DNA from: Psammoneis japonica | Lineage: Eukaryota | DNA length: 64,000 nt | Direction of reading: 5' to 3' | Assembly: GCA_008632985.1 (NCBI GenBank) | Contig: QPGO01000019.1 | Coordinates: forward strand, 744,001 to 808,000 | In this document: positions 1,021-58,815 of the stretch, piece by piece | Layout: every line of letters starts with the position of its first letter | Numbering within the stretch: position 1 is the first letter of the stretch | Program-made: the position numbers and the translations under genes | Notes under the pieces: model-generated | The model's database searches: none | Seen by the model: the letters and a program-made list of their open reading frames with translations, nothing else | What the model was told of the DNA's origin: nothing

Positions 1021-1387
1021 AGGTAGAATGATGCTGGCAGCAGGTAGTAAAGTAGAGGACGCGATTCACATCATTTGAGATAGCTAATGTGAAGCAGAAG
1101 CTCTGCTCAAGTTGAAAGGAATCGAATGTTGCAACATGGAAACAGTCTTACACAAAACTTTTAACTTGGGCGCGCAGGACCGTTTTGACACTTTTTTTGC
1201 CAATTTTACGAATTTTTATTTTTGATGTGACATTCCGATAAACAACCCAAAAAGACGAAAAATAAAGCGCGCCAAAACGTTGGCCCACATGGACTGCGCA
1301 TTTTTTTTTTCCAACACACATTGAACATCATAACGCAGACACAACACACAACACACAATACAGGCATCAAAAGGTCGACAACACATC

Positions 1388-2452
1388 ATGGGAAAGAAAA
1401 GCCGTCGCAACCGCATCAAGGGCAAGATCAAGTCAGCGGTAAATGTGCCTTTAGCTCAAGAAGAAGACAATCATGAGATCGTGGGCAGCATGCAGGCTGT
1501 GGTCTTGAAATTGCGAGGCGACTTTGTGAAGAACGCTTCGGCCATCATGGTGGAGCTCCTTCGTGCCTTGAACAAGGACACGACTCGTGCCGTTTGGGCG
1601 TTTGTCAAGGCTGGAGGGATTGATGGTATTCTTGTCTTTATGCTAAAGATTCGCAATGACCCACTTTGCATGTGTGTCTGCTGCACGGCTCTTTCTGTAG
1701 TTGCAAATAGCTTGCCCAAAAACGCCTGTGCCGCCGCGATTGCTCAGAGCGGCGGAATACCAACTATTGTTCAAGCTATCCGCCTTGTAATCATGTTTGG
1801 AATTCCAAAGGACATGGAAACGACCTACATGAAATGTATGAGTCGCGGTGTGGGCCTCGTGGGAGAGTTGGCGAATGAAGACGTGACGGCCGTACAACGC
1901 GCTGGTGGCATTGCGGCTATTGTCGAAGTCCTGCAGTATCCTTTTACAGATGAAGAAACGAAAAGGATGATGCATCACAGTGCTGTACACTCGCTAGTCT
2001 CAATCATGATGGCGACAAGAGCTGTTGATCTCCCGAGTGTCCTTGCGGAAACGATCCGTTGCGGTGGAGTTCCCACCCTCGTCCGTTGCCTCAAGCAGTA
2101 TCCCCATGATTTGGATATTCAAGCACCCGGATGCGCCATCATGGCGGTGCTTGCCAATCCACAAGTGGGTGGTAATCCATCTGCAGTCCTTGCTGCAGGA
2201 GCGGACAGTGTCATGGAGATGGCTCTAAAACTGCACAAGGGAAACTACGACATGCAGTCGTACGCAGCGGATGCGCTTTTCTCGTTGAACGAGGTCGTTC
2301 CTCAATGCCAGTGTTGCGGAAAAAAAGCCAAGGATTTGATGGTGTGTTGCCGGTGTGAAATTGCTTGGTATTGCAATAATAATTGCATTTTGAGGGACTG
2401 GGTGAAGCACAAGGAGGCGTGCAACCACGCTCGCTGGAAGCATCGCTACTAA
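1388..2452 (+). CDS. Armadillo-repeat protein with C-terminal MYND zinc finger
   Basis: Single 354-aa ORF. ARM-like motifs (FVKAGGIDGIL, AQSGGIPTIV, RAGGIAAIV, RCGGVPTLV) and C-terminal CQCC...CCRC...YC...C...W..HK..C matching zf-MYND. Confidence 0.85.
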   Translation: MGKKSRRNRIKGKIKSAVNVPLAQEEDNHEIVGSMQAVVLKLRGDFVKNASAIMVELLRALNKDTTRAVWAFVKAGGIDGILVFMLKIRNDPLCMCVCCTALSVVANSLPKNACAAAIAQSGGIPTIVQAIRLVIMFGIPKDMETTYMKCMSRGVGLVGELANEDVTAVQRAGGIAAIVEVLQYPFTDEETKRMMHHSAVHSLVSIMMATRAVDLPSVLAETIRCGGVPTLVRCLKQYPHDLDIQAPGCAIMAVLANPQVGGNPSAVLAAGADSVMEMALKLHKGNYDMQSYAADALFSLNEVVPQCQCCGKKAKDLMVCCRCEIAWYCNNNCILRDWVKHKEACNHARWKHRY

Positions 2453-3329
2453 CCCCCATGCTTGATACCGTTTGTGGAGAAATCCATAATTTTGTGTCGA
2501 CCCTATTTGCTTCGATGTATGTGTTCAAGATCATATAATGCACTCTTTTGTGAATCGTTTCACCTGCTTGGAGCCGGGGAAACGTCACGACAACGTGCAT
2601 GCTTTGGGCTATAGTTTCACTCGCATACGGGCCTTCGTACAAGTGTTTTCGAAAGATTTGTTTCGCTGGCTTGTAGTAGCCGGTAAGACGTTCAGCAGTC
2701 AGGTACCAATATGCATACCATTGAGTGTTGTGGCTATAATATAGAGGTCTCAGTTTTTGTGTCACTTTCAAGAATGTGTTGGTATTTTAAATATCTATAG
2801 CTTGCTGGCTCTGATCGTTGCTGTGTGAGTAAACCTCATACTTTGGATGGAGCACAAGGTGCAGTTGTAGGAAGAAAGCAAGCTACAGGTGGCTGGAGGA
2901 CTTTTTCTAGACGCACGCCGAAACTGGTGAAGAAAGGGACCACTTTCTGACCCCAGTAGGCTGCAAGGGTGTGATTCAGAAAAATAAATTACTGAAGTGC
3001 CGCTGAAAGTCGTTTTCATAGCAGTTGGGAGCTCTCACAGTGCACACTGACATGATCGAATGATCGTTTAGCTAAGAGCAGAGAGAGCTGTACGGTAGTG
3101 TAGCTTCGCCTTTTTCGAGCGAATGAGGGCACGATAAACACCAACCAGCTAGAGTAGCTTCTCTCTACTAGAGTAGAGCTACTCTCTCTAGATAGTAGAG
3201 AGTAGTTAGCAACGAAAGATGGTGCAGTACAAGTACCAACCTTGCATTCTTGTTACAGTATTATCCCTGACCAGGGTTTTCCGGTACCAATGACCACTGA
3301 GGACATTGAAAACATTAAAATGTTGAGGC

Positions 3330-4414
3330 GCTGTGGGATGCCACCGCTCGGATGACGCAAACCCCTTGAATATTCTGACGCAGTTTTTGACCAACATAAC
3401 CGGCACCGTTGTCGTACATAATAACGACAAATCCCGCGACAGCCCTACCCTTTCCCGCGTCCTCCATCGCCTGCCGTGTTTTCACATATCCTGCTAACGG
3501 CTCTTGAGCTTTGTATACACGAAATCAGCAGTGGGGGGCATTTCAGACTCAACTTGCTTCAGTTCCAATGTCACCACACTCGTGTCGGAACTAAATGTGA
3601 CATCTGTCCGCTTTCCGGTCGCTGGCAATTTGCCCTCTTGGCTTGTCCGTGCAATGTCCTGCAGAATGTCATGAGCCTCCGTGACGACGTGAGACTGGAA
3701 TTGAAGCTCCAAGACGTGATCATTGGAGTCTGATGAAGCCCACCCCATGAGTCTTGCCATGTTGCTTTGCGAAATGGAAGTCACAAAGTCCACCAATGTC
3801 TCTTCACCATGGGCACGCAAATCTTCCGCGGACTCCAGTGCAACCAACTTTTCCAACGAAGCTCGCAAGGTCTTCAGAAGGGGTTTGAGCAGGTTCTCGT
3901 GGTGGAACTCAGATGCAATGGTGAAAGCTGGGTTGTCGGTTGATGTCCCCAAGGCTGACACCACACCAACATGAACTGGCAAAGCAAGGTGGTCACTGAT
4001 GTCAATGGTTTCTTGCAAGAGATTCTCCAAACTCAGCTGCTCCTTGATCTCATGTCTTGGTCCTGAAGCTGTCTCCCCATCGGCCAGTTTGTTTGCCACT
4101 GGGCGCAGGTTCCTGCCATTGCACAAGACGTTGAACAGCAATGACGGAACCGGCTCCCATGCCAAACCTCCTGGCACCTTGCCAGTGGATGAGAATTTTT
4201 GTCGTTTCGTTTCCTTTGTTGGATCCAGCAACACATTCATCATGTGATTGACACCTCCGGTGTGAGAGAGAGGCTGACTCTCTGGAAATCGAAGGTCATT
4301 GAAGTTGCGCTTGAGCAAAGTCTTTGCCAGCTCCAGTGCACTCACTGGAAGTGACCCAGCCAGTCCGGCGACCCAATTTGCAAATTGCCCTGGTGTCGGG
4401 GTCATCCAATGCAC
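3330..4414 (-). pseudogene. Degenerate PD-(D/E)XK nuclease-like gene, copy A
   Basis: ORF 3494-4414 ends in GKRTDVTFSSDTSVVTLELKQ (R-x-D...E-x-K nuclease-like motif). It continues after a frameshift as ...QEPLAGYVK...AVAGFVVIMYDNG. His/Cys occupy expected Tyr positions (SEFHH here versus SEFYR in copy B). Confidence 0.55.
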
Positions 4415-4971
4415 ACAGTCAACAACAGGAAAGAAAATGAATGCTTTGTGGTCACAAGAACAAGAAGTCTCTGCTGTGGCCCAAGAATCATTGTTGTTGT
4501 TGTTGTCATCATTTCAGCAGTGGCTTGTTGTTGTTTTGCCATTGTTCCTTTGTTCATCGGCGCGCCACCTTTCTTCCCCCAGCTCCTCTTTCCCATCATT
4601 CCAACGGTCTTCTTTGACAATTGCAAGTAAAGCAGCAGTGACACTTTGTCAACAAGGCACTTTCACAAAGTTGCGGACGTCCATTGTGTCTTTCCCTGCC
4701 TGAGGCAGGCCTGGGCTGGAACCCGGTGACAACAAGACTGTCGACAACCAAAGGAGGTCACCAAGAAGATCTCATGTCATTTGCTTTCTTCACCTGACTT
4801 GGAAGAAGGAGGTGTGAAATGTCTAAATGTTGGAACAAAAAGAGCAGTTGGCAACGAAAGATGGTGCAGTGCAAGCACCAACCTTGCATTCTTGTTGCAG
4901 TGTCATCCCTGACCAGGGTTCTCCGGCACCAATGACCACTGAGGACATTGAAAACATTAAAATGTTGAGGC

Positions 4972-6056
4972 GCTGTGGGATGCCACCGCTCGGATGACGC
5001 AAACCCCTTGAATGTTCTGACGCAGTTTTTGACCAACACAACCGGCACCGTTGTCGTACATGATGACGACAAATCCCGCGACAGCCCTGCCCTTTCCCGC
5101 GTCCTCCATTGCCTGCCGTGTTTTCACACATCCTGCTAACGGCTCTTGAGCTTTGTGTGCACGAAATCAGCAGTGGGGGGCATTTCAGACTCAACTTGCT
5201 TCAGTTCCAATGTCACCACACTCGTGTCGGAACTAAATGTGACATCTGTCCGCTTTCCGGTCGCTGGCAATTTGCCCTCTTGGCTTGTCCGTGCAATGTC
5301 CTGCAGAATGTCATGAGCCTCCGTGACGACGTGAGACTGGAACTGAAGCTCCAAGACGTGATCATTGGAGTCTGATGAAGCCCACCCCATGAGTCTTGCC
5401 ATGTTGCTTTGCGAAATGGAAGTCACAAAGTCCACCAATGTCTCTTCACCATGGGCACGCAAATCTTCCGCGGACTCCAGTGCAACCAACTTTTCCAACG
5501 AAGCTCGCAAGGTCTTCAGAAGGGGTTTGAGCAGGTTCTCGCGGTAGAATTCAGATGCAATGGTGAAAGCTGGGTTGTCGGTTGATGTCCCCAAGGCTGA
5601 CACCACACCAACATGAACTGGCAAAGCAAGGTGGTCACTGATGTCAATGGTTTCTTGCAAGAGATTCTCCAAACTGAGCTGCTCCTTGATCTCATGTCTC
5701 GGTCCTGAAACTGTCTCCCCATCAGCCAGTTTGTTTGCCACTGGGCGCAGGTTCCTGCCATTGCACAAGACGTTGAACAGCAATGATGGAACCGGCTCCC
5801 ATGCCAAACCTCCTGGCACCTTGCCAGTGGATGAGAATTTTTGTCATTTCGTTTCCTTTGTTGGATCCAGCAACACATTCATCATGTGATTGACACCTCC
5901 GGTGTGAGAGAGAGGCTGACTCTCTGGAAATCAAAGGTCATTGAAGTTGCGCTTGAGCGAAGTCTTTGCCAGCTCCAGTGCACTCACTGGAAGTGACCCA
6001 GCCAGTCCGGTGACCCAATTTGCAAATTGCCCTGGTGTCGGGGTCATCCAATGCAC
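4972..6056 (-). pseudogene. Degenerate PD-(D/E)XK nuclease-like gene, copy B
   Basis: Paralog of copy A (ORF 5136-5819), with the same frameshift plus an additional in-frame stop upstream. Confidence 0.55.
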
Positions 6057-7598
6057 ACAGTCAACAACAAGAAAGAAAATGAATGCTTTGTGGTCACAAG
6101 AACGAGAAGTCTCTGCTGTGGCCCAAGAATCATTGTTGTTGTTGTTGTCATCATTTCAGCAGTGGCTTGTTGTTGTTTTGCCATTGTTCCTTTGTTCATC
6201 GGCACGCCACCTTTCTTCCCCCAATTCCTCTTTCCCATCATTCCAACGGTCTTCTTTGACAATTGCAAGTAAAGCAGCAGTGGCACTTTGTCAACAAGGC
6301 ACTTTCACAAAGTTGCGGACGTCCATTGTGTCTTTCCCTGCCTGAGGCAGGCCTGGGCTGGAACCCGGTGACAACAAGACTGTCGACAACCAAAGGAGGT
6401 CACCAAGAAGATCATGTCATTTGCTTTCTTCACCTGACTTGGAAGAAGGAGGTGTGAAATGTCTAAATGTTGGAACAAAAAGGGCTCAGAAATGTGCACC
6501 CGTGGTGGCAACAAATGCATCAAAGTGGAGAAGATGTCACGAAACAACAACAATGTTGGCAACAAGTGTCAAAGTGTCGCTGTTGTTTCACCAGATTCCA
6601 GCAGCAGCAAAAAGCAGTCTCAGTCTCTTTCTCCAACTAAAAGGAAAAAAGAAGTTTTCACTGTCAAAAACCAGACTTGAGCCGGGCTCCATTAAAAACT
6701 GCCAGGTGGCCAGGAAGATGTTTGGAGTCTCGCAGAGGAACTGTGCCAAGATCGTGCAGCACCGGTCGATCATTTTTGGTGTTGGGCAGTGTCATGACTC
6801 AGCAAATTTGGAAGACTCTGTGCCTGGCAGAAATTGTGCATGCTTGAGTCCCACACATTCCTGGCTCTCCATGCTGGAACACCATGTTGAATTTTCAAAT
6901 GATGGGCATGAGCCAAGCCAACAAAGACATTGATGTGTGGATGAGACCATCCTTGACAATGGCTCTGCCCCCAGCACAGCAGCAAGCCAGAGACTGGCAC
7001 ACAATGTGCAACCAGAAAAAACCAAGATTGATCTGTTGAGGAACACAAGAGTGGACACTTCAGATGAAAACTCTGCTGTGCCATGCCTGGATCATGGGGG
7101 ATGCAAAGCTTGGATCACAGAATGACATGGCAAACATCCTCAATTCAATGGATGTGAAGAGCAAGCACTGTGTGACTTGCAACAACCAAGTGGCAGACAA
7201 GTTGCTTCTGACTGCTGGACAAGAAAACTGGCAAGCAAGCAAGCAGCGGCATTCAAAGTGAATGACACTAGACTGCAAACCTTTGCATTGAGCCAGCAGA
7301 AGGTCTTTGAGAGTGACCACACAAAAGATCTCCAAGAAAGTCAGTTGCACATGAGCATGCTGTCAAAAAACAACAAGAAGAAGGGTGAAAAGAAGCACTG
7401 TGGTTCCGACAGTGGAGCAGAATTTGGCCACAGAATCATTTTGATTCTTTTTCTGTTGATTTTACAAATTTTTGTTTTTCATGTGACAAAAAAAGAAAGA
7501 GTGCCAAAATGATGGCCCACATCCACCACGATTGTCATCAACAAGCCCATCAACACAATGCAAATGCACAACACAGCCGCCAAAAGATCAACCACAAA

Positions 7599-8115
7599 AT
7601 GGGAAAGAAAAGTCATCTCAACTGCATCAAAAGCAAGATCAAATTGGCAATGGTGGCAAACAATGTGCCTTTGGCTTGAGAAGAAGATGAGCAGATCATT
7701 GGCTGCATCATGCAGGCTGTGGTCTTAAAACTGCTGGGAGACTTGAGCAATGTGAATGCTCCAGCCATCACGGGGGAGCTCCTTTGTGCTTTCAACAAGG
7801 ACAGCAGCACTTGTGCCATTTGGGCATTTGTTGATGCTGGCTGGGTGCATGTTGACTGCATTCTTGTGTCTGTGTGAAAGATTCACAATGACCCGCCAAG
7901 CACGTGTGTCTGCTGCACAGCTTTTCTTGTGGTTGCCAACACCTTGCTGAGCAGCGCGCCTGTGCTGCCACAGTTGCTCTGAGCAGTTGAGTTTATCTGA
8001 CCATTGTTGGAGCAATCTGCCTCATGATCATGTTTGGAGCTCCTCCAAAGGACATAGAAATGACCTGTGTGAAAAATGCATGGGCAATGGTGCACAAGTT
8101 GCGCAGGTGAGGGAA
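7599..8115 (+). pseudogene. Degenerate, truncated paralog of the ARM-MYND gene (1388-2452)
   Basis: atgggaaagaaaagtcatctcaactgcatcaaaagcaagatc matches atgggaaagaaaagccgtcgcaaccgcatcaagggcaagatc, and catgcaggctgtggtctt is shared. It has a TGA at 7677, indels and TA loss. The flanks are also homologous (7460-7520 to ~1205-1290; 8180-8530 to ~2935-3285). Confidence 0.85.
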
Positions 8116-8704
8116 GAGAAAGCAAGCGCCGCAGGTGTGTGCTGCCCCTTTTTCCAGATGCATTTCACCACTGGTTGAGATTGGGGCCAGTTTCTGACCC
8201 CAGCAGGTTGCAAGGGTGATCACTGCAGTGCAGCTGAAAGTCATCTTTGCAGCAGTTGAGCTGTCATTGGAGCTCTCACAGTGTGTGCCAGCCAAGGACA
8301 TGATCGAACGATCATTTGGCCACAAAGCAGAAAGCTGCATTGCAGCCTGGCTTTGCCTTTTTCGAGCAAATGAGGGCACGATAAAACACCAACAGGCTAG
8401 AGCAGCTTCTCTCTGCTGGTGGAGCTACTCTCTCTAGTGCTCTATTTAGCACGGAACTAATGTGGCACAGGTGCCAACCTTGCATTCTACCGGTGCTGAG
8501 CGAGCTGTCACCTGATCAGGGTTTTCTGGGTTGCAGGCGCCCGCCGCGCGCCTGCGCGCTCACCGCACTGCTCATCTCTTCTCTTTGTTTCATTTCTCTC
8601 GCGTGAAAAACTGCTTCAACGCAAATAGCTTCACTTCTGGGTTCTGGGATTACAGAGCCGCTTTGATCTGTATCTTATCGTGTTGATGCATCACCTTTAG
8701 CAAG

Positions 8705-21609: not shown

Positions 21610-23096
21610 ATGTTTCTCTGTAAATACGTCACGTCACCGTTTTGGAGTTCAGGCGGAGAAAAACGATTGATTGACGGTATTCTGCAAAGAATTGTTTGCT
21701 TTCACCAGCATTACCCATCTGACCATGGTAGTGTCGACGCGAAGCCATCGTCCAGAAGACCTGCAGCAAATATTTATGCACTGCATGAAGAGCTGGAGAA
21801 AAGTGACGAGGCTTCTCTCGAAAGAGTCCAGTCTTTGGTTCAAATGTATCCTGACGTAACACAGCATATCCGTCGAGCGCCTTTCATGTCACCAGTTGAA
21901 TTTGAGATTCCGTTACACACAGCAATCATGTGGCTCTGCAGCGCTGACATTATTCTATTTCTTGCCGAACGGACGCCTTCCATGAACAACGGAGCATCAT
22001 GGTGTCCGAGTCCTTTGCGTCTTCTTTTGGAATGCTTTCACCACCAAGCAGGTCCACATCCATCTCTCCGTGTTCTTCGAATGCTGACCCGTCGTTTTCG
22101 AAAGGACCTCATGACTCCCACGCACGACTGGCGTCACCCTACTCGACTAGATTTGCCCATTCACTTTGCTCTTCGGGGGCGTCTGCCATCTGACGTTATC
22201 AAAATACTTGCAAAGGCCGAACCCTCTGCGCTCAACAAAGAGAATGGGATAGGTCAGCGCCCTCTGCTTGTTGCTTGTTGCAGGCGATTGTGGACGATGC
22301 CAAGATGCTCCAAGACCTGCAACTGCTGGTGCAGTATTGTCCAGAAGTGATGGAGTTGGGAGATGATTACCTACATAAATGCCTGGTGACTCTCATGCAA
22401 GACTGTGAAGGCGGTCCCCTGGCGGTCCGGTTCCTTCTCGAACACTTGTATCCGTCCCTCTGCGAAAAATTCATACCCTTTGAGGCAACAAAGTGCAAAA
22501 CCCAGACATACGGCTTTGTCTATTGTCTTGCCCGTCTTTTTCCCGAGACCCTTGGGGTTGTTCACAATGGATCGACCGCCCTTCATGAGTTCTGTGACAA
22601 TGAGAATGTCGTTAGAGGCCGTGACAACCTGCTTTTGTTTGCACAACCAGAAGCGGTTCGCGTGAAGGATAGAAGGGGAAGGCTGCCCTTACACCTTCTT
22701 TGCCAGCAAAATCCTGAGCTACAGTTGGTACAGGCGTTTGTGAAGCTCTACCCAGAATCAGTGCGAATTGCGGACAAGCGTGGATTGCTGCCCTTGCACT
22801 TTGCCTGCATGCAGCATCCCACGAACAAGGCCGACGCCATCAAGCAGAGCAAACTGATTCGGTATTTGGTTGAGCAGCACCCTGCAGCAATTGATGTGCC
22901 AGCCAACAACCACTGGAATAAACATCGTCCCGAATTGCGCCTTCCCGCCTTTTTGGCAGCCTCCAATCGAAATGCACAACTGGATGCCGTCTACCATCTC
23001 TTGAGGCTGCATCCTGGAGCCGTGTTGGCCGCACAGCGTCCTGGTCGGCCCCCTTCTGGGCGCAAACGCAAGGCTCCAGAGTATCTTTGCTTCTAA
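21610..23096 (+). CDS. Ankyrin-repeat-like protein, split by an apparent frameshift near 22280
   Basis: Repeated PLHTA / LPIHFAL / PLLVAC / ALHEFC / LPLHLLC / LPLHFAC units across two overlapping ORFs (21535-22350, 22275-23096); C-terminal RKRK. Start uncertain. Confidence 0.7.
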
Positions 23097-23326: not shown

Positions 23327-24300
23327 TTAGCCAAGAGGGATGAGAACACATCGATGAATTGGCGTTCCATTCATTGTGCAAGCAACCTCCGTCTCAGTTC
23401 TCCCAGGGGTTTGGAGTAGCGGAGTCTCACACCACCCTTTACCGTGAGCTCGTTCTCCCCCCATTGCAACCCACTCCTGTGTTCGTTTAGGTATTCGAAA
23501 ATTGTTTCCGCTTGACTGTGGGTCCTTTTCTGTACCATGGCATTTGTCGACAACACAAAAGCCAGTGTCGTGACAAGCAGCACGGCACATCCATAACGCA
23601 ACATCATCCTCACAGTTTGACTGCATCAACAATTTCCCACAAAAGCTTGCACCGGTGCCATCCTTTGCCTTCTTGACTGGCACTTGCCTTGCCAACCACA
23701 GCAGCTCAGTTGTCACCATCATCATGAAGCCACTCATGACATTTGCTGGCAGTCGCGAGTTTCCGTCAGGTTGTTGGATGCTGTCATCAGCAGCAAAAGC
23801 AAAGTCAGCAGAGAAAGGCATGCAACAAGGAGTCAGAAATTGCAAGAGACAAAGCTGAACAGGACCAGGACAAGACTCAACAACTTGTTGGAGAAAGGAT
23901 TCTGTGTCTTGTTGGAAAGAGTGAAGCTTGTGCTCCAATCCCCAATGTTTGGCAAGCCTGCAAGCACATCCAATGCCGAGTCCATTGAGCTCAACTCCAG
24001 CACAATTTGACCATGACCAGTTTGCCAAGGGATTGACCTTGACCAAATCCGTGCTGGTGTTGTCTGCATGCAACTGCCCAAGCAATGACATGCCCACTCC
24101 ACAGCCCACATCCACAACAAGAGGACTGTCTGGGTTTTCAAAGACATCTGGACAAACTGCGGTTGTTGATCTGCCATTTGAGTGAGCAGTTGGTGGCCCA
24201 ATCCATTTGTCTCACTCCCATTGAGCTGAGGTGGCTTGAAAAAAAGCACAGTTGCTGTTGCTGATGAGTGGAGAATTGCCAAAGCATGAGGAGACTGTGG
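23327..24300 (-). pseudogene. Degenerate SAM-dependent methyltransferase domain (TrmB-like)
   Basis: DVGCGVGMSLLG (motif I), LQFLTPC, GKLLMQSNCEDDVA and GRTETEVAC. Cys/His replace expected Tyr and there are frameshifts. Probably the 3' part of a longer decayed gene. Confidence 0.65.
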
Positions 24301-27300
24301 TCTGAAAAAAGATTGAGAAGACAACTGCCGGCACCAATGCCCTTGTGATCACCCTTCTTGTTCTCTAGATCTTTTGTCTCTAGAGCCCATGTTGCAGCTT
24401 GCTCCAGGGCTTTATGATGCTGCAATCCGGCAGCTCCAAAGCATTCCAGGACATGCCAAATGTCCTTTGAATGACAAAATGCTTGCTTGCCAGATCAGTT
24501 GAGCTCCTGAGCAGCCACGCCAGTCACAAAGATTCAAACAAAGCTTGGTCAGCTGCACCTGCAAAAGCAAACCACAATGCTGCATTGGCTGCCTTTTGAC
24601 CTTGCAGGTTGCACTTGCCCATGGTCTTGAGATGCAGAAGCGGCTCTGGCAATCATGATGTTTTTGCCTGCTTTGAGGCTCACAATTCTGGGGTTCATCA
24701 TTTCATTTTGTGGTTTTGATTTGTGAGATCATGCAAATTGTGAGACAAGTGCTTTGGCTCTGGTCACTTTTCTTCCTTTGGCATTTGGTGAAGCAGTCTG
24801 AGTGACCACAACCCCAGAAGACTTCACCAGAAATTGGCCATTGGGCAGCGACAGACTGTGATTCTTTCGAATTCCAGTGAACTCCATCTTGTTCAAGACA
24901 TGACAACCTGAAGGCCAAAAGAGGATGCAGTGCATGGTGTGCTGCAAAAACTTGTTCTACACCAGGCTTCGATGAAAGTCAAGCAAACTTGCTTCAGTTC
25001 TGACTTTCCATTCCAACCTGCACCATTGTTCAGAGAACACTCTGCATGCTGCTGCTTCAAGAAGCAGGAGGGTTTAGCCAGTGTGTGCAGTTGGACAAAC
25101 CGGCTGAGGCTCTGGCCCAACAACAACAGCCACCCCTGGCTGCACCTTGGTGCCAGTGTGTGGGCTGCAAGCTTGTGCTCAATGTGACACCTTGCCTCTG
25201 GGTGCCAGTGGGGGGTGCAAAGGCACACCATTGTCAGGTGTGCGTTCCTGTCATTTTTGCTGCGCTGGTGTTGCAGCACTCTGCTGCTGTCTCTGTCTTG
25301 CTTGCTCAGTGAGAAGCCAGCAGCACAAAGAGTGTGCCACTTGCCAGCTCACAGCTTTTGTCTCTGACAGCAAAAAAGTGTTGACTCTGGCGCGCCAGCA
25401 CAGTTTCTTCACCTGGCTCACTCACTGTTTTCTGAAGAGCATTTTGCTGCAGCCAGCTGGCAACAGCACTTCTTCCTGTCCATTGTCTTGCTTTTTTGTC
25501 CTTTTTTGCAGCAGACAGCCCCGGTGCTGTGCACTTTGTTGCAAGAGAGCTTTTTTCTCAAGGCACTTCATGCCCCCCACAAGCTTCAATGAAGCTGGTG
25601 GTGGTTGGAAAATTTGCACAGCAGCTTGACATTCTGCCAATGACACACTCGCAAACCCACAAAAAAGGCACTCTTCCTGAGCTCCTTGGTCTCTGCAACA
25701 TCTTTCTGAAAAAACATGAAACAACCAGCTCACTTTCCCACATTTCCTCTGGCTAAATCACAGCCTTTTGGCACATGCTGCCTTGTGTCTGGATGCCCAT
25801 TGTGTGCAGTGCATTGCCAAACTTGTTGCAACCCCGGCATTTTTTCCCAAGCACTTTGTTGACAATGCTGGTGCAGGAAACAATGGCATGTTGAAGCAGC
25901 CACAAAAACTGTGCCTTGTCTTTGCTGACAACAACCTTTGCACACATGCTGAGAATGGCAGAAAAAAAGACAATGTCTTTGCAGGCAGTTGCCAGACAGA
26001 CAAGGGCTTTGTCATTTCAAAATGTGCACTTGCCATCAGCCCTGCTGTGATTTGCTCCTTCAAAGCCCCCAGCTTGTTTGTTCAAGCAGACAAATTTGTC
26101 TGGAGAGGGTTCCACCCACACTCTCACCTCTGCCACACACTCAAGTGACAGATGATTGCTTCCCTCAAATGCCCTTGCACAGAGCATCTCAATCCAACAA
26201 AGTGGGCTTTTTTTTTTGAATCAACAAATGACTGGGGGATCACCAATGCAGCTGCTTGGGGACATCCTTGAGGAACATCAAATTTGGCTTTCAGATGTTG
26301 TCAAAAACACTTCCAACCACAGAGTTTGTTTGGCAGAAGAAGCTTTTTGGGAAGCAGGGGGGCTTCAGAGGATGACAGCTGTGGGCTGGGCCACCCAGCT
26401 CTTCTTCAGTTGATCCTTCTCCAGAGACAGTGCCTGGTGCAAAGATGCTGTCAAAAAATTGGAAGTGCGCAAGCTTTTTGTGAGACCACTGCTGCCATCA
26501 TCACCAAAACATTGTCTCTTGTTGCAGATGTCACCCAAAGTGCAGCTGTCCACAGCAAAGTTGTCAAATGCTGAGTTTTGTTTGGCAGGCAGCCAGCACC
26601 TCTGCAACCTCTGACAATTGTGCTGGGCACTGCAGCAAAAGCTGTTCTCAACTGCAGTGTAACTCACTCTGTGTCTGCCAAGCTTGCCACCACAATCACT
26701 GTCACCCAGCAATTTTCACAAGGTGGTGAGTGCTGCTGCCTTTTTGTGGCATCACAGCCAACCCACAAGGCCGCCAACATGGCCCACACATTGAGCTCCT
26801 GAGAACAAGGTTGCTGGTGTCCTTGGAGGGAACCCAATGGCAGCAAACAACCTGCCACACCTTTCAGTTTGCAAGCCATGGATGATGCACTCACTTCCAC
26901 CATGATTTGATGCACCTCTTCACAAAATCATTTGTTGATGAGGGTGCAAAAAGTTTTCTCATTGTGCAGCACTTGTCATCTCTGCTCCTCTCCACTTTTG
27001 TCAAATCTGCACAAGAATGAATTTTTCATGGCTCACAACCTTCCACCCCACAACTCAAGTCAGTCTTTGCCCATTGCTGGTTGACAGGCTGCAAAAAGCA
27101 GCTTGCTGTGGCTGAGCAAAAAGCAAGCTTGGCTGGGGAGGTCACCATCTCAACTGGACCTGACCTTTGTGATGCTCTCATCAATTTCATCTTTCTTTCT
27201 TGTTCCTCTTGTTTGCTGCTGCTCAAGAGTTTTGCTTTTGGGTTGGGGAACAGGTGATGGAGACAAAACAGTGCTGAAAGAGGTGCAAGATGCAGCTGCT

Positions 27301-27650
27301 GCTGTGCTCCTTGCACAGAAGATGCTGAAGAGAGACAAACAAATGTGATTGCTGCTGGATCCCATCTGATGAAAACAATTTAAAAACAAGGAGCCCAAAC
27401 TCTGTGTTTGTGACAGTTCAAAGGGGAACCACATTTTAAGTGGCTGCCGGGTGGAGCAAATGAGGCACTCATGAAGTGGACAATCATGGTGTGAGGATTG
27501 AGCCAGAGGAACCCTTGGTGGCAGCCTCCATTGTGCCACCATGGTGGACTTGCCATGCACCTCACTTTTTGTCTTTGTTTCTGTGTTTTTCTCTGGCTTT
27601 TCTCTTTTTGTTCTCTTGCTCGTGTCTCTGCATGGCACAATGATGGTTTC
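23600..27650. other. TpA-depleted block containing a decayed host-type gene (possibly helical-repeat/PPR-like N-terminal part plus methyltransferase)
   Basis: TA nearly absent. Minus-strand fragments such as NEKTFCTLIN and PSTIVRGC...PN...TTL weakly resemble PPR repeats after restoring Tyr. Confidence 0.45.
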
Positions 27651-28003
27651 CATGCCGGTTCTAGAGAATCACCAAGGACAGACAAAAAGCGAAGGTTGGG
27701 CCCTGCGGCGGGGCTAGCCTGTGATGGGTACAGTAAGTTACCAGGCACGAAGGAACAAGGATAGACGCCGGCAGTGGATAAAGGGCGTACTCAGCACTAT
27801 GAAAAGCGAAATCTAGCTAGGAATAATCTGAATATCGCACATGAGAAGAGACGAGCGCATGAACAGAAGGAAAGCTCTGCACAAAAGGAAGCAAATTTCT
27901 GATGCAGCTCTTCTGCAGAACAATCGTCCCTCTAGACATGCTGTTAATCAAGCATATTCAACAGGTTCTAGTTGCATGAATCATGGTGTCATCTATTTCA
28001 CCT

Positions 28004-29863: not shown

Positions 29864-30489
29864 TAGCCAGTAACTGGTGAGTGTTTGACGAATAGTCTTG
29901 ACTCGATTTGTAGCCTTTTGGTTTGTGCCACTTAACGATCAGTCGTTTTCTCCATCGCTATTTGTACGACTATCGACTATTCGTGATTTCCTTTCGTCTA
30001 GATTCTACACTTCTACTCTCTACTCTAGCTAGCTACTCTCTAGCTAGCTAGTAGAGAGAGCACTTCTTGTAAAGTTTTATGCAGCAAAGGAATTGCGCTT
30101 CTTTGAAGTGTTCCAAGGAAATTCAGATTTCAAAAAATGACCGACGTGAAATCAAAGACTGCAACATTAATTAGTTACGAAAATTTAACGAATTTAGGGC
30201 AATAAGTTGATAATTTCTGGAATTGCGAATGCCAACACACTTATTAAATGTCAGAAAGACAAGATGTGCACACTTAACAAATGTCTCTATAAATGTTGCG
30301 CTCACAAAACACCGGAGAAATCGATCGGAGAAACGACCCAGCCTGACGTGCCGCGCCTGCCAATCTACCGCACTTCAGGTCGGGTCTATTAGGGCCTACT
30401 CGGCGAGAGGATCTCAAATCCGGTCTCAAATGGATTTGCACCACCTTCGGTCATGAAGTTAAATGTGTACACACACATCTCTAAAAATG

Positions 30490-31910
30490 TCATGTTTGGT
30501 GCAATTGAGGCATGCGCACAACTTGCGCACAGCAGCGCAATGTCGGACAGACGACAGGCCGACGATGACGATGACATTTTTCTGATGCTCTTGCAAAACG
30601 ACTTTGCAACAGGCACTTGACATGTTGATCAATGACACTGTGGGGAACACTTGCATGTAAAGAAAGTCCCCCGGACGAACTCACAATCATTCGACATTCG
30701 AGTGCACAAAACGATCGTCAAAAAACAGAGCTCCTTGTTGGTGTGACGTTTTGCTTTCGAACAGAGGTTGCTGGCGGGGACTTTCATGACTGAATGCATT
30801 CTTAAACTCAACAAACTAAATGTCCACAAGACGCGTTCCAGCTCTGGGTGGGACCTCGCACTGCTGAACTGTGACATCGACAGTTTTTTGGATCGCACCG
30901 CATGTCGCACACGTAGAAAGGTACGTGACTTTTCTGAAATTTTGTGTCATTTTGTGGTGCACTCACTGAGCGATCCGTCCAACAACTTTTGACATTTTTT
31001 TGTTCTGCGCCATTTGCAAATGTCTTAAGAATGGCACAGGGCAGGCGGATTGACGAAAATGTCAAGCGGCAATGGTCACAATTGTGCCACAAACTTGGTC
31101 ATTTGTTTGATGTTGAAGATGAAAATGTCCGTTGATTAAATTCTCGTAATGCGGAGCTCGCACGTAGAATTCTGCGGGCCAAATGTCACAAAAAGTCCCA
31201 CCCAGGACTGGAACCCGTCACAATGACAAAAGACTCTGGGACACGTCGCTGTCATCGCTGTCGTTGCAACAACGCACCACCGTCACGTCGCCAATTTTTG
31301 GCGATGAGGCACGCAGCACCCTGCACGTTTCTCGTGCAGCAGAAAATCCTGAAAAATCAAATTGTCGTGCCTCCACCCCTTCGTCATGCGAATGCCTCAA
31401 GGCATGCGCAGAACTTGCACACAGCAGCGCAATGTCGGAGAGACGACAGTTGTGCTTTTTTTGCGATTTGCGCAACAGAATTGCCGTCGACGCCGACAAT
31501 GACGATGACATCTTTCTGACGCTCTTACAAAACGACTTTGCAACAGACACTTGACACATCAATCGACGACACTGTGAAGCACACACATGTGTAAAGAAAG
31601 TCCCCCGGACGAACTCACAATCGTTCGACATTCGAATGCATGAAACGATGGTCAAAAAACAGAGCTCCTCATTGGTGTGACGTTTTGCTTTCGAACAGAG
31701 GTTGCTGGCGGGGACTTTCATGACTGAATGCATTCTTAAACTCAACAAACCAAATGTCTGTAATGACAAAAGACTCTGGGACACGTCGCTGTCATCGCTG
31801 TTGTTGCGACAACACATCATCGTCACGTCGCCGATTTTTGGCGATGAGGCGCGTAGCGCGCTACGCGTTTCTTGCACAGTGGAAATCCTGAAAAATCAAA
31901 TTGTCGTATT
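30490..31910. repeat. Tandem duplication (~0.5-kb unit) whose first copy is interrupted by a MITE
   Basis: 30510-30829 matches 31400-31763, and 31220-31368 matches 31760-31908. Confidence 0.85.
30830..31219. mobile_element. MITE copy 1 (390 bp), TIR GACGCGTTCCAGCTCTGGGTGGGAC, 4-bp TSD ACAA
   Basis: Right end gtcccacccaggactggaacccgtc is the near reverse complement of the left end. acaa at 30826-30829 and 31220-31223. An empty site is present in the duplicate at ~31752-31770. Confidence 0.92.
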
Positions 31911-32439
31911 TTCACCGTTTTGTTCTGCGATTGCCTTAAGGATGGATCGTTGTTTGGTGGTCGATTTTATTTAGAGCTCCCAAACATTTAAAAATGACCC
32001 GGATCTGTCGTGCTGACAGTGCGCGCGTTCGCCAAAAAAAAAAAATCAGCGACAGGTCGGAACTTTGTCTGTTTCTAAGACAACACAGAATGCACATGTG
32101 ACGGTTGCGACCATGCGCGAGGATGTGCAGCTTAACGACTGCAGACATGTCCACAGCCGGTCAAATGCCAATTGTCGGCATTTCCTGGAAAGTTGTGGCT
32201 TGTCTGCCGCAACAGTCCGATTTTGGCGGAAAATGGCGGTTTGTCGCATGTGACAACCAAGGCAACTATGACAATTGGCGTTTGAAGGTTAAAATGTGCA
32301 GTTCACACAAAGGTCTGACAGCCCTGATGGGGGCTGGACACACTCACATGTGTTTGGGGGTGCTCAGAGGCTTCTCGCAAAATGACACGGGCGAAGTGTG
32401 GGGAAATTCGAAAATCACGAGCCATTTAAAAAAACAGTG

Positions 32440-33420
32440 CTAAACATCGATCCAGCCTTGGCCGGCCAACCTGCCATTGAGTCAAGCCTTGCTGCCTTGT
32501 TGCATGACTCCAGTGTTGTTGTCAGGGCAAACATCAAAATGTTGGACAAGCTTCAGCTCTCATCATCTCTTCCATTGAGTTGACTTTGGGGATCCAGGAG
32601 CTTTTGCAAATGGTTGGTGTGTGTTGGTGGGTCAGCAGGCAGAACATTGACTCACAATGCCTTGCCTCATGGCACCAGCATTGCCACTGCCTGATCCAGT
32701 TGGTGCACTGGAGCAGGAGGATCCCGTGTGGCAGCTGCATGTGATGTCAACAAAGTGGAAAGCAGAGCTTGTGCAAAAAAAAGCACAGCACTTTTGCTTG
32801 CTGCCACGCTTGTGTCAGTTGCGCAGGCAAAGTTGCACAAACAGCTTGGGAGGGTGAGTGCACAAATTCATCAAATGTGCTGTGTCTGAGTCAGCCCTGA
32901 ACCAACAAAGCTTTTCAAGAGTTGATTTGCCCCACCCTTCTGCAAGTTGTGCGTGGATCATTCACTTTGAACAGGGGCACATCCAACAGGCTTTCTTTAG
33001 AAGCAACAAGTTTCTCCCACCTCCTGCTTTGAAGAAATGAGTGTGCATCTGGAGCATGACAGCAGCTGAGTTCTGATCTGATCTCACCAAAGCCAGCATG
33101 CTGAGCAAATGTGTGTGCACTCACATGACCACATGCATGCACACATGTTTGCCAACCACTTTTGGTGATTGGCGCACTTGCTTCACACCAACAGTTGGGC
33201 AAACCCCAGAGAGGAGCGACACACTCACAGTTTTGCAGAACCTGTTGATTGCCACACTGCAAACCTTCTCTTTGTCTCCATTTGTTCACTGTCCCAGTCA
33301 TGTTTGCTCCAAATGTCAAGAAAGAAGGTTGTGCCACTTTGGATTGTTTCTTTCCCCACATGCAATGGCATGTCACTTTGAGTGGTGTTGCATGTGCTTG
33401 GTGTCTGCAAGGTTCGGTCA
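32440..33420. other. TpA-depleted degenerate coding-like sequence, unidentified
   Basis: TA nearly absent; Cys/His-rich ORFs in all frames; TA returns at ~33425-33500. Confidence 0.55.
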
Positions 33421-33664
33421 GCTTAAAGCTGGTGCAATGCCGAGAAGCTGTACTTGCAACTCAAATAATTGACACTCCTAGTCTGTACACAAGGCTAAGA
33501 GTCCATAATGACATTGCGATTTCCAATTGTTAGAAGTATGATTGGAATGCTGGCATATAATTCCTGTTAAGATTCCGAATGGCAAACTCGTAATCGTAGC
33601 TTCCATCTCGCTACAGCTAAGGTATCATAGAGAGGACTTTAAACCCAAGCACGGCATATTTCGA

Positions 33665-36070: not shown

Positions 36071-38713
36071 TCAGCCGTACCACCTACTCCAGTATCCAGT
36101 CTCTGCACGATGAGCCTTGGCGCAGGTTTCAACGTATAGTAATTCGTCTGGCTTGGGATGGTGGTGTTGACTGACGCACCCGTTCTTCCTATTGACTGGC
36201 TGGAGTTCAAATTGGTCGGAATAAAAGTCCCCTCTGCCTGCGCTCCACCTTTGTCTTGGAGATGTTGCATTACAAGTAGCTGCACGCAGCGCTCGAACAT
36301 TTGTTCGCTGCAAGCACAAATCCTTGCCAATCATCTTGATTTGGGCACCCTTTCCTTCGGGGTACACAAATTCAAACTCCATCTTGGACTTGTGGCAGTA
36401 GTCAACCAAAAGCTCGTTTTCCACGCCCGACCGGCACTTTTCCCCCTTACAAAGGATGCACCATCTCTGTTCTTTGGGTGACTCTTGCCACATGTAACCG
36501 TCTTTCCAGAACAGCTTCAGCTTAAACTTGTTTGGTTCAAAGATTCCTTGAGGTGCATCCGACCGCCTGTAACAATAATCTTCACCAAACACACCTTGGC
36601 CATTGCATCCGGGGACTGGTTGAAAATGACTTTGTCTCTGAAAACATTCAAGTCCATTGGCACAGTCATTGTCAGTGTCACAATCACCACGGCAATGAGC
36701 AAGCGTACCCGCGGGAAAGTTATTGTTCCCGACAGATACGAGTTCATCGACACCTGGAGTAGGACCTGGGGTCGGGGCTCTAGAAGTTGGTGATGGAGTC
36801 GGAAACCTTGTAGGCGTTGGAGTTGGACTGGTGGTTGGTACTGGAGGACCAGTTGGAGCAAGAGTTGCAAAGCCATCAAACTGGTCCTCGTAATAGCAAT
36901 AATCACGACCATCTTCTGGCGTTCCTGTGCACCCTGGTGGCCCTTCATCGTTTCTGTTACGTTGGAAGCACACCATGGATCCTTGACAATCATTATCGTT
37001 ATCGCAGTCTCCTTCGCAATGGCCAAGTGGAAAGGCGGACGAAGGCTGTCCATCATTACCTGGTAGGGACAGTACAGAAACTGTCGAATCAAAACCATTT
37101 TGAGAAGTTGGCGGATCAGTGGGTGATTCTGTCGGGGATGGAGTTGGACTGGTGGTTGGAGCTGGAGGACCGGTTGCAGGGGTCGGTCCATCGTAGTAGC
37201 AGTAGTCACGGGCTTTGTAAGGGGTTCCAAAGCACCCAGGAGGTCCAAGGTCTCCCGTGTCACGTTGGAAGCACACCATTGCACCTTCGCAGTCATTATC
37301 ATTGTCGCAGTCTCCTTCGCAATGGCCAAGTGGAAAGACGTTATCATTACCGTCACCAACAAGTTTCAGCTCTGAAAGTAGCTCATCAGGGTTAGTTTGG
37401 GAAGTTGGAGCAAATGTAGAAAACTCGGTAGGTGAAAGTGTTGGAGGCGTCGTTCTTGGATCATAGCAATAGTCCTTGGCTGCAAATGGCGTTCCAACAC
37501 ATGGGGAATTTGGTGCGTGATCTTCACCATCTGTGAAGAAAGACAGTACAAAATATCAAGGTTAGTCATTGGCAAAAATGTTGAAGAAGAATCCTTTTCT
37601 TTTCTTACTATTGCGATGCCAGCACTCTAGTTCTCCTTCGCAGTCGTCATCGTTGTCACAATCCCCTTGACAGAGCTTCAGAGGGAAAGCAGCGGTATCC
37701 TTATTGTCACCGACAATCACAAGTTGATACTGTGCTGATGGGGATATAGTGGGCGTGGGCTGGCTCGTTGGCGGATCCGTAGGCCTCATAGAAGGCTGCG
37801 TTGTAAGCTTCGGTAGCGGAGGCAACGTAATGATTACAGAAGGTGATGGTTGAGGCGTATTCATAACATCTCCTGCATTCCCGTCAAAGTAGCAGTAATC
37901 CCAGTTCCCCTCTGGTGTACCTAGACAACCAGGGACATATGTCGTGTCCCTACTGCGTTGGAAACAGCGCAACGGTCCCTCGCAGTCAACGTCACTATCG
38001 CAGTCAGCTTGACAGTTACCAAGAGCATATGCAAGATTGTTTCCAGGATTTGAAACAGGTACAGGATAGTAACCTGGTGCAACCGATGGCGCAGGAGTGA
38101 CGTCGCCGCCTGGCGTCATGGTTGGAGATGTTGTTGCCAGCTTGGTTGGTCCTGGCGTAATGGGCGGTGGTCCTCCCAATGTCAATCCGACATGGCAAAA
38201 GTCAACAGCAGGGAAGCCTGTGCCTCTGCAGCCTGGGACGGCCTCCGTTCCGCCGCGCTGGAAACATTGGAGCGACCCAGCACATTCACCGTCGTGGTTG
38301 CAGTCACCTTCACATTCAGCGAGAGGGGTATCAGAGATGGGCAAAGTAGCCTCGTCTCGTACAAACAAATCGGGTTCTGTATTCGACAAGTCTCCCATGC
38401 CAGCATAGTAGCAATAATCGGCGCCCCCTCTGAAAGTACCGACGCATCCAGGGATGGGCGTTGAGTCGCCGTTTATGCGCTGAAAACAGATCATGTCACC
38501 CTGACAATCTTGATCTCCATCGCAATCGCCTTCACAGAGTCCAAGGCCACCTGCAGACACTGGATTAGTTCCCAAATACGTAAGAGTGCCTTGTTCTTGG
38601 AGGGCTCGCTGCTGGTTGGGTGCGAGTTTCTTTGGACTTCCTAGCCGAATCTCTCCATTGGCGGTGCTGATTGAATACCAGATAGCAAAGAAAGAAGCAT
38701 AAAAGACTTTCAT
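36071..38713 (-). CDS. Frustulin (diatom cell-wall glycoprotein): 7 ACR domains, Pro/Thr linkers, Trp-rich C-terminal domain; intron 37531-37608
   Basis: Signal peptide MKVFYASFFAIW; seven C(E/Q/R)(G/A)DC(D/N)...C..R...C...DYCY-type units; C-terminal KLKLFWKDGYMWQE...WC domain. The GT-AG intron restores the frame. Confidence 0.88.
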
Positions 38714-39682
38714 CTTACCGAGCTTTGGTTTCAGTGTGGCAAAAAACACACGACCAAGTTAGGGGACGCTGTTGAATTTTCAGGTAAAGACGCTGTTTTC
38801 ATGCAACAACCAGCGCATACGTTGATTTTGAAACCTTGTAGCTCCCCAAGAGGTGACTTATGCACAAAAGGATAGCATTGAACTTACTTTTGTTGCTCAA
38901 AGGAGAGGCGCCAAACGCGTTGCTTCCTCCCACAACAAATCAATCAATAAAGCGGTATGTTGTGGCGAAGAATGTGAGCAGAACATTCAGCAAAAATCCA
39001 AGGGAGGTCGCGGGGCTGGGTTTAACGTTATATCGGGTAAACGGTATATTGCTCTTTAAAAGCTTCATTTAGTGGCAGCACATGTAAAACTTCATTCCAT
39101 CTGATAGTGACACATTATACCTAACTAATCGACTGTTAAGAAGGATTGTTTTTCCATGACCATTAGTAATTTTGTTATATATTTTTTTCTTCGCAACGGA
39201 TACGTCGCTGAAATATATTCGTTGGCGAGGTTATATCATAAATGTTGATGTAGTTATCATCATTGATTCGTGTGCATATTTTTGGATTAACAAAAATGGA
39301 ACGTTGCGCTCGCTCGCTGAATCCAGAATCGATTTCACCGACTGAAGCAAAACGCGCGAGCGCGAACGCGCATCCTAAGATTTGCCGCGCGTTTTCAAGT
39401 TTACCCGCCGACACCGCACACGCATTACGCATTGACAACGATGACATTTCTCAGCGCATTTTCACTCCAGCACGGCGGTCGTCGCCCTTGACATCCCAAC
39501 CAAGATCGGGAAACGATTTGCAAGTATTAGGAATCGAGTGGCACTGCAACTGGAAAACTGGTACCATACTTGATGAAGTGGCGGAGTTTTATGACGAAAC
39601 GAAACGTGAAAGCACGCCGCCGTTACCCCCCTCATTTTTCCGGTGAGAAATGAATGCAAATAAAAAGCGAGAAACGAGACGA

Positions 39683-51250: not shown

Positions 51251-51400
51251 GCAAAGTCAAAGTGTCAGAGGACAGCACACCGCCTCAGATGTGAGCACAA
51301 TGCCTCATTTTTGGCTCTGGTTGGGGCTCAATTCTCTCTTTTTGATGCTGCTGACATGGCTCCATGCATTGCACAGCGGATTTTTGTTTCATGTAAAAGA

Positions 51401-51847
51401 GAGTGCAATGTGCAGCTGCTGGCAAGAGTCAGCGCATCACGGCGACGTGTTGCAGCCTTTAAATGTCACAAAGGGCATGACAAAACAACCTTTTGTCTGC
51501 ATGCATGCTGCGTTGTGAATTCACAGCGGAGTGGTTCATCGCAACCATCAGGCAGGAGGCCAGGGGTTCGAAACCCTGAGTGGGAGTTGTCTGCAGCAAC
51601 GTTGATCACTGTCGAACGCGTAAAACTCTGTGCAGTTCTGCATGTTCCTTCGTGCGTACCCACACTGTTCCGCCAAAACCGTGCAGTGTCAGTGCACGTT
51701 GGCAAAGAGCCGTGTGGACGCGTGATGCATGGGGAGGAGTGCAACACACAGCTGCCAACAAGAGTCAATGTGTCACGGCGACGTGTTACAGCCTTTAAAT
51801 GTCACAAAGGGCGTGACAAAATAACCTTTTGTCTGCATGCATGCTGC
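51401..51847. repeat. Two ~110-bp direct repeats (51401-51511, 51737-51847)
   Basis: Shared cacggcgacgtgtt.cagcctttaaatgtcacaaaggg..tgacaaaa.aaccttttgtctgcatgcatgctgc. Lies downstream of the copia relic, possibly LTR-derived. Confidence 0.85.
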
Positions 51848-56353: not shown

Positions 56354-56745
56354 GACGTGTTCCAGCTCTGGGTGGGACCTCGCACCACTGAACTGTGACA
56401 TCGACAGTTTTTTGGATCGCACCACATGTGTCGCGCACGCAGAAAGGTGCGTGACTTTTCTGAAATTTTGTGTCATTTTGTGGTGCACTTGTTGAGCGAT
56501 CCGTCCAACAACTTTTGACATTTTTTTTTACAGCGCGATTCTTAAATGTCTTGAGAATCGCGCAGGGCAGGCGCACCTGCAAAAACGTCAAGCGGCAATG
56601 GTCACAATTGTGCCACAAACCTGGTTGTTCATTTGATGTTGAAGACAAAAATGTCCATCAATTGGATTCTTGTAATGCGGAGCTCGCAAGCAGAATTCTA
56701 CGGGCCCAATGTCACAAAAAGTCCCACCCAGGACTGGAACCCATC
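56354..56745. mobile_element. MITE copy 2 (392 bp), 4-bp TSD GTGC
   Basis: Collinear with 30830-31219; gtgc at 56350-56353 and 56746-56749. Confidence 0.92.
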
Positions 56746-58811: not shown

Positions 58812-58815
58812 GAGA

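Follow-up and report, generated by a model that had tools for sequence, protein, structure and literature searches.

Loss of TpA dinucleotides by processes resembling RIP (repeat-induced point mutation) is represented in the literature that we searched by a single match, a preprint on Bigelowiella natans, with nothing found for diatoms. In mutation-accumulation lines of this organism, the changes acquired by two integrated viral regions are almost exclusively A-to-G and T-to-C, and all of them fall at TpA (Mettrop et al., bioRxiv 10.64898/2026.01.13.699255). According to the main text of the preprint, the rate of ∼6e-7 per site per generation is ∼1000 times background, the large hypermutable region is single copy and transcriptionally silent, and there are 124 clusters of TpA-poor, CpA- and TpG-rich windows; an ADAT2-like adenine deaminase is proposed, and RNA guides or epigenetic marks are suggested for target choice (Mettrop et al.). 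From the figures given there (211 mutations, 6169 TpA, 3132 generations), our own arithmetic yields ∼1e-5 per TpA per generation, which is fast enough to produce all-or-none blocks. For RIP in Neurospora, the portion of the study drawn on here describes a RID pathway that mutates both copies alike, within the duplicated segment, and a heterochromatin-related DIM-5/DIM-2 pathway that follows chromatin state and reaches single-copy DNA beside repeats (10.1101/115501). Here we analyze a 64-kb stretch of contig QPGO01000019.1 (positions 744,001 to 808,000, forward strand; hereafter the window), which contains blocks nearly emptied of TpA, and a tandem duplication (3199-6485) that crosses the edge of one of them, such that the same ∼320-bp sequence lies outside the block in copy A and inside it in copy B. 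The duplication amounts to a natural reporter experiment on how TpA hypermutation picks its targets, and the opposite fates of the 320 bp argue against a trigger that acts in trans by sequence matching, and for a position-bound state in cis with sharp borders. We assign a probability of roughly 0.6 to the conclusion that targeting is by position in cis and not by homology, and the same to the whole explanation (a cis-acting, position-bound TpA mutator), which we consider the best one available.

A two-state hidden Markov model (HMM) of TpA found the window to be bimodal, with seven blocks at 1-9 TpA/kb against 39-51/kb elsewhere (pooled, 4.5/kb within blocks and 41.3/kb outside). These blocks have 13 edges within the window, and are as follows.

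1-1023: block 1, TpA-depleted
3517-8381: block 2, TpA-depleted (3.5 TpA/kb), containing copies A and B, a high-copy repeat and a dead paralogue, X'
23595-27661: block 3, depleted in both TpA and CpG (2.2 TpA/kb, 6.9 CpG/kb)
30483-33423, 48153-51786 (block 5), 55663-58143 and 58766-63757: the remaining blocks

At 50-bp resolution each of the 13 edges is a step, with no graded zone on either side: the 50-bp bins contain 0-4.6 TpA/kb throughout the block interiors, and 40-57/kb outside from the first bin on. CpA and TpG are each ∼33/kb higher within the blocks, and their sum rises by ∼60/kb; ApT is lower there and GpC higher, as expected from transitions at the T or the A of TpA. A genome-wide, uniform TpA bias was rejected as a candidate, since non-coding DNA just outside the blocks is at full TpA density. 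No k-mer is common to the 13 edges, and k-mer counts there are not above random.

The duplicated segments, 3199-4845 and 4841-6485, align at 97.6% identity over 1647 columns, and the features needed to compare them are these.

3199-3517: A-320, the first part of copy A, TpA-normal (19 TpA), made up of the last 67 codons of a pseudogene and its 3' flank
3518-4840: the rest of copy A, TpA-depleted (3 TpA), with the same conversion outcomes as copy B
4841-5162: B-320, the counterpart of A-320 inside the block, with 16/19 TpA converted and 1/18 CpG lost
5163-6485: the rest of copy B, TpA-depleted (4 TpA), retaining a TpA at 5545 that is lost in copy A (3904)
3315-4336, minus strand: a PF09820-type (AAA-ATPase-like) gene copy, 5'-truncated and frameshifted, 78% identical to its best relative

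A preliminary description of this DNA had stated that the first ∼320 bp of copy A keep all 19 TA, that the same sequence is converted in copy B, and that copy A is converted too beyond ∼3520. The first statement is borne out, with 19 TpA in 3199-3520, and so is the third, with 3 TpA in the ∼1320 bp to the right of 3520 (4 in the corresponding ∼1320 bp of copy B); the second holds for 16 of the sites, while three TpA (in TTAA, GTAC, and CTAA contexts) are kept in 4841-5162. TpA was thus lost at 0/19 sites in A-320 and at 16/19 in B-320 (Fisher p = 8.7e-8). Among the 18 differences between the copies in 3199-3520, 16 are TA in A and CA or TG in B, one is CG to TG, and one is another T to C; the reverse arrangement, TA in B with CA or TG in A, occurs at 0/16 sites (binomial p = 3.1e-5). 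Six of the conversions in B-320 are to CpA (T-to-C) and 10 are to TpG (A-to-G), mixed on one strand. TpA loss per site in B-320 is 1.85; the background per lineage, taken from 9 other differences in 1571 bp, is ∼640 times lower. The claim that the A/B homology edge does not determine the mutation edge therefore stands: the same sequence lost none or most of its 19 TpA depending on its location.

The direction of change can be read from comparison with a second pair of sequences, the neighboring gene region X and its degraded paralogue.

1388-2452, plus strand: an intact Armadillo/MYND-finger (Arm/MYND) gene, TpA-normal, convergent with the pseudogene, and part of paralogue X (1339-3284)
7553-8529: X', the old, dead paralogue of X, at 70-72% identity, with one-sided conversion

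The initial 85 bp of copy A have a counterpart in X'. At position 3228, A has TA, B has TG, and X' (8305-8560) has CA; at position 3234, A has TA, B has CA, and X' has TG. At three places where relatives of the pseudogene encode Tyr, copy A encodes Tyr at all three, and copy B encodes Cys at two and Tyr at one. The states of the three copies and these protein outgroups make TpA the ancestral state, and the opposite outcomes in B and X' indicate that whether a site ends as CpA or TpG is a matter of chance. Two candidate processes were rejected: classical RIP in copy A (CpA to TpA), as the outgroups show TpA to have been lost and not gained, and strand-specific editing of RNA or complementary DNA (cDNA), as both outcomes are mixed on one strand.

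Two copies that were converted independently should disagree (CpA in one, TpG in the other) at roughly one in two of the positions that used to be TpA. Across 3521-4768, there are no such discordances between A and B, although CpA and TpG together are ∼65 above expectation; given the stochastic outcomes, the conversions to the right of 3517 and the edge at 3517/3518 must predate the duplication. The edge is thus shown to be older than the 1.64-kb tandem duplication and to cut the 3' part of the dead PF09820-type gene, and the duplication is shown to have put a second, unconverted copy of the 320 bp inside the block, where 16 of its 19 TpA were then lost. Because the edge is the older feature, A-320 is old outside DNA and only B-320 was converted afterwards; the earlier idea of 3199-3520 as a protected repeat margin is accordingly abandoned, the conversions beyond it being common to both copies. 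Events after the duplication comprise the 16 TpA lost from B-320, one residual TpA lost from copy A (at 3904, kept in B at 5545), and CpG decay on both sides (6 and 4 sites). The loss at 3904 places a still active mutator 390 bp from A-320, which lost none.

Two further observations concern the present state of block 2. A 12.8-kb contig of sequencing run X1 differs from the window inside the block by TA/CA at 7619, TA/TG at 7995, and CpG/TpG-type changes at 6732, 7957, and 8127, and the same contig has no differences over 1095 bp of TpA-normal DNA (2221-3315), which suggests that conversion is still going on between haplotypes or strains. One other contig (depth 34) covering 5125-5184 has TG at 5168/9 and 5181/2 where the window has CA; this single short contig, for which the protein outgroups are ambiguous, hints that the first converted ancestral TpA lies 9 bp from the last one kept.

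In the mechanism that we propose, an efficient mutator would change TpA to CpA or TpG; the simplest route would be deamination of the TpA adenine, on whichever strand it lies. CpG decay would proceed in these blocks too, at a much lower pace. This mutator would act in cis on any DNA within a stably bounded stretch of chromosome, and its choice of target would be independent of a homologous partner or of a matching guide elsewhere. The edge may correspond to the place where silent, probably cytosine-methylated chromatin gives way to the active unit to which the convergent live gene belongs. If this is correct, the fast loss of TpA and the slow loss of CpG together would form a record of where silent chromatin lay in the past, and should the block borders coincide with those of chromatin, silent domains could be mapped and dated from sequence alone. 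A stronger version, in which the mutator reads a heritable silent-chromatin state, the borders are fixed to about ten bases by active transcription units, the loss of TpA and CpG is a clocked, base-resolution fossil record, and the process operates also outside chlorarachniophytes and on dead cellular genes, is offered tentatively, as we think it more doubtful than not.

A second edge, at 23595, has a similar arrangement of genes, and a third is crossed by a short repeat.

23330-24211, minus strand: the C-terminal part of a TrmB-like, methyltransferase-related gene copy, with TpA kept in its final 88 codons (23330-23594) and depleted in the remainder
22305-23096, plus strand: an ankyrin-repeat gene, intact, that converges on the methyltransferase-like copy and has its stop codon 499 bp away from the edge of the block
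51737-51847: a copy of a 111-bp repeat straddling the edge at 51786, with its partner at 51401-51511 inside block 5

The methyltransferase-like copy was said to keep TA in the ∼270 bp that face the ankyrin gene, and this is confirmed, with 7 TpA in 23328-23594 (∼26/kb) against 2.2/kb in the adjoining block. For the open reading frame (ORF) at 23330-24211, 359 relatives were found at E ≤ 0.001, the best at 8.5e-64; the alignments span residues 21-293 of the ORF and extend to the C-termini of these relatives, so the TA-keeping stretch is truly the 3' end of the gene copy. Pfam recognized no methyltransferase in the ORF itself, two of the three relatives scanned have Methyltransf_4 matches below the curated cut-off, and a PDB sequence search with the ORF returned no hits. 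Each of the two dead genes lies on the minus strand and faces the 3' end of a plus-strand gene that is intact, and the edge falls 200 and 265 bp before the stop codon of the dead gene and 1065 bp (Arm/MYND) and 499 bp (ankyrin) from that of the live one. At the third edge, the outside part of the straddling repeat has kept 2 TpA and 1 CpG that the interior partner lost, and its inside part was converted independently of that partner.

The preliminary description had also proposed that the edges leave a constant protected margin of ∼300 bp, or one to two nucleosomes, next to active sequence. No such constant exists in the window, where the distance between a block's end and the closest live coding sequence ranges from 198 to 1065 bp; these distances, together with a 622-bp island of normal TpA density between two blocks, also fail to support a nucleosome-sized margin as a rule. 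Nor does the margin recur in X', which is converted to ∼8510, ∼20 bp from the end of its homology to X at 8529, after which a CpG-rich, promoter-like stretch precedes an ABC transporter gene. The suggested comparison of TpA retention with distance from the edge, carried out over the 13 edges, bears out the sharpness of the steps.

The pseudogene that crosses the 3517/3518 edge requires closer description. The minus-strand ORF at 3497-4513 is the 5'-truncated PF09820-type copy, and its best relative comes from a Bacillariaceae metagenome bin. The last 67 codons lie at 3318-3518 on the minus strand, with the stop codon at 3315-3317, and the last 53 alignable residues, in another frame (3360-3518), are 89% identical to the best relative. 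A frameshift is located at 3513-3518, where 5 nt (TATAC in copy A) stand in place of one codon in the relatives, and at 5155-5160 in copy B. In a Pfam search at E ≤ 10 with the two key ORFs, no AAA family and no methyltransferase was found. Four contigs with TA at 5304 show that the pseudogene has paralogues. Metagenome contigs with PF09820-type relatives (L001, L002, and L003) also contain TpA-poor stretches: in L003, TpA density is normal up to the final 715 bp (5574-6288), which contain none, and in L002 (2500-4371) TpA per 500 bp falls from 21-49 to 6-9. The same process may be acting in these environmental relatives.

Several points weigh against a mutator bound to position. The frameshift at 3513-3518 is the only one in the aligned pseudogene and lies exactly at the TpA edge, which may be a coincidence (roughly 1-5%) or the trace of an old junction. 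The old edge could therefore be a place where rearrangement joined stretches of DNA that differ in history, and not a chromatin border, and the sharpness of the steps fits an anchored border and a rearrangement junction equally well; as the frameshift and the edge are common to A and B, any junction predates the duplication. Given the paralogues of the pseudogene, a homology trigger for the original conversion of the block is possible. The natural experiments available are one large (19 sites) and one small (2 sites). The island at 58144-58765 keeps its TpA between two blocks, and its survival indicates that flanking by blocks is not always followed by conversion. Finally, spared and converted TpA are interleaved across 8382-8510 of X', with no clean border; the part-spared segment at 8382-8447 retains 6 TpA, 5 of them common to X and mainly in CTAG and CTAC contexts.

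Under an alternative in which targets are found by homology or by a guide, through RIP-like pairing or small RNAs derived from the blocks, the asymmetry between A-320 and B-320 would be a pairing edge effect or chance. It gains some ground from the duplicated DNA that block 2 contains (A/B, X', and the high-copy repeat at 6900-7500), from the paralogues of the pseudogene, and from the conversions in X', which stop about where its homology to X stops. It is difficult to reconcile with identical sequence being hit at 16/19 sites in B and 0/19 in A; a guide derived from B-320 would match A-320 too. Comparison of X with X' gives TpA losses of 2 and 26 and CpG losses of 6 and 25, respectively, so X' was converted and X was not; X (1339-3284) is untouched despite other contigs at least 80% alike on its TpA-normal 1201-2400 part, where depth is 145-288 against ∼60. 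RIP in Neurospora is described as mutating both copies alike, with 3163 versus 3153 mutations (10.1101/115501), and the hypermutable viral insert of B. natans is single copy in the preprint's account (Mettrop et al.). We judge targeting by homology or guide to be decidedly unlikely for this window. An assembly artefact, in which converted and unconverted copies were joined into a chimera, is a different matter: copies 97.6% alike are prone to collapse, and there is no depth over the bins 3901-4800. Independent short-read contigs nevertheless bridge 3199 (2221-3315, 0 differences) and 3517 (3453-3801, 1 difference), and both 320-bp versions have depth (72 at 3001-3300 and 66 at 4801-5100), from which we conclude that the duplication structure is not produced by assembly, and we regard this alternative as scarcely credible.

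Selection provides another way to account for the intact A-320, if this stretch was also hit but converted haplotypes were purged because it serves the live Arm/MYND gene as terminator, 3' untranslated region (UTR), or antisense control. The stopping of every block 198-1065 bp short of live coding sequence would fit, as would the fact that the initial 85 bp of A-320 are conserved in X', an old paralogue. If conversion is gradual, however, 19 TpA would have to be held one by one, and gradual conversion is suggested both by the B. natans lines, with 2-45 mutations per line in the preprint's account (Mettrop et al.), and by the single TA/CA (7619) and TA/TG (7995) differences from run X1. Moreover, A-320 is mostly the C-terminus of a frameshifted pseudogene, and TpA density is full up to the edge at 13/13 edges, so we consider purging unlikely. 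That A-320 was first converted and then restored, with an unconverted allele or paralogue as the donor in gene conversion or crossing-over, is, in our estimation, very unlikely, even though paralogues exist, the edge frameshift could be the trace of a junction, and a nearly identical unconverted allele is a possible donor. A and B differ at only 2 non-TpA positions in these 322 bp, compared with 19 in 1325 bp for the rest (p = 0.40), whereas a donor diverged by 10% would have left ∼30 such differences (P(≤2) = 4.5e-11); replacement from a diverged unmutated donor, the finding that would have overturned the original claim, is thereby excluded. In addition, any junction marked by the shared frameshift and edge would predate the duplication, and depth at 3001-3300 is about that of a single copy.

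A cis-acting, position-bound mutator is closest in its products to the process in B. natans: both convert TpA only, to CpA and TpG, regionally and far above background, both leave TpA-poor, CpA- and TpG-rich clusters, and in the account given by the preprint a single-copy, silent region is hit there, with no repeat needed. The targets differ, as they are viral inserts of 25-186 kb in B. natans (Mettrop et al.) and blocks of 2.5-5 kb with dead cellular-type genes here. Among the block ORFs of at least 70 aa (216 listed), Pfam at the curated cut-off found no family, viral or other, in the 128 that were scanned, so that nothing viral was recognized among the scanned ORFs, and the block contents that could be identified are copies of cellular-type genes (the Arm/MYND paralogue, the TrmB-like copy, and the PF09820-type copy). 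The genome of B. natans is intron-rich. The host here is probably a different one, since the ORFs are mostly intron-free and the nearest named relative belongs to the Bacillariaceae (diatom) bin, at 78%. The signature is the same in both, and the mechanism probably so. The present locus would add the behavior of the edges, the degradation of dead cellular genes, a slower CpG decay alongside, a preference for certain contexts, and a host that is probably another one, from a second lineage; the main text of the preprint, its supplements aside, contains neither 'CpG', 'boundar', 'border', or 'flanking' nor a TpA context preference (Mettrop et al.).

RIP in Neurospora and the process seen here are alike in being transition hypermutations specific to a dinucleotide, by which gene copies and mobile DNA are inactivated. 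The process here runs in the opposite direction, as RIP turns CpA into TpA and here the ancestral TpA is lost; RIP strikes both copies and is bounded by homology, whereas here one copy is spared (X, A-320) and the edge ignores homology. RIP by the DIM-5/DIM-2 route, as far as the cited portion goes, comes closest to a precedent for a domain-following mutator, and differs in being homology-induced, C to T, and premeiotic (10.1101/115501). The present blocks also differ from repeat RNA or cDNA edited by ADAR or APOBEC enzymes. These are deaminases with a 5'-neighbor preference (U or T before the edited A). Such editing marks one strand of an RNA-derived copy, in contrast to the mixed outcomes on one strand, produced in place after a tandem DNA duplication, that are found here.

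Methylated CpG decays to TpG and CpA by deamination of 5-methylcytosine, and CpG in the blocks is lost to the same products, at a far slower pace than TpA: B-320 has lost 16/19 TpA and only 1/18 CpG, and two blocks are TpA-poor with normal CpG. On average CpG is halved, with 7-27/kb within blocks against ∼53/kb outside, with near-total loss in 23595-27661 and none in 30483-32500 and 55663-58143 despite their poverty in TpA. TpA loss is near complete in every block while CpG loss varies widely (30483-32500 and 55663-58143 versus 23595-27661 and 48153-51786), and CpG decay could serve as a clock for the time that DNA has resided within a block. The TpA that survive in the seven blocks (n = 105) are a non-random set, in which TTAA is over-represented 5.6-fold, CTAA/TTAG 2.6-fold, and CTAG 2.3-fold, while ATAT is absent and ATAC/GTAT stand at 0.06; the mutator seems to favor purine-TpA-pyrimidine and to shun pyrimidine-TpA-purine.

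Several minor observations concern repeats and the remaining contents of the window. A CTAG/GTAG-rich, low-complexity patch (3139-3198 and 8395-8447) is conserved between X and X', where it is the sole part of X' that partly retains TpA, and the left breakpoint of the duplication (3199) adjoins it. The stretch 58736-58812 of the island at 58144-58765 keeps TpA and is a copy (77% alike) of a repeat whose occurrences at 31144-31220 and 56670-56746 are partly converted. In block 2, the high-copy repeat (6900-7500) is matched by a great many other contigs and has a depth of 382-826, compared with ∼60, with many joints and loose ends; contig depth in this window is about that of a single copy on either side of it, at 6301-6900 and 7501-8400. 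Block 7 starts with tandem arrays (59105-60350) with periods of 63 and 159 bp, a GC skew of up to 0.39, and a G+C content (GC) of 0.57-0.60. The window as a whole has a GC of ∼0.48 and consists mainly of intron-free ORFs for ordinary cellular proteins, including an ABC-2 transporter, a PARP-type protein, a short-chain dehydrogenase, a fucosidase, the ankyrin protein, a sulfatase (closest relative 63% identical), a thioredoxin/fn3 protein, and a WD40 protein. No relatives of the Arm/MYND protein were found in the relative search, and Rfam and tRNA scans over the whole window gave no matches. On the minus strand at 36074-38758, two adjoining ORFs encode repeated cysteine-rich units (weak WAP-type matches) and contain internal direct repeats of ∼320-350 bp.

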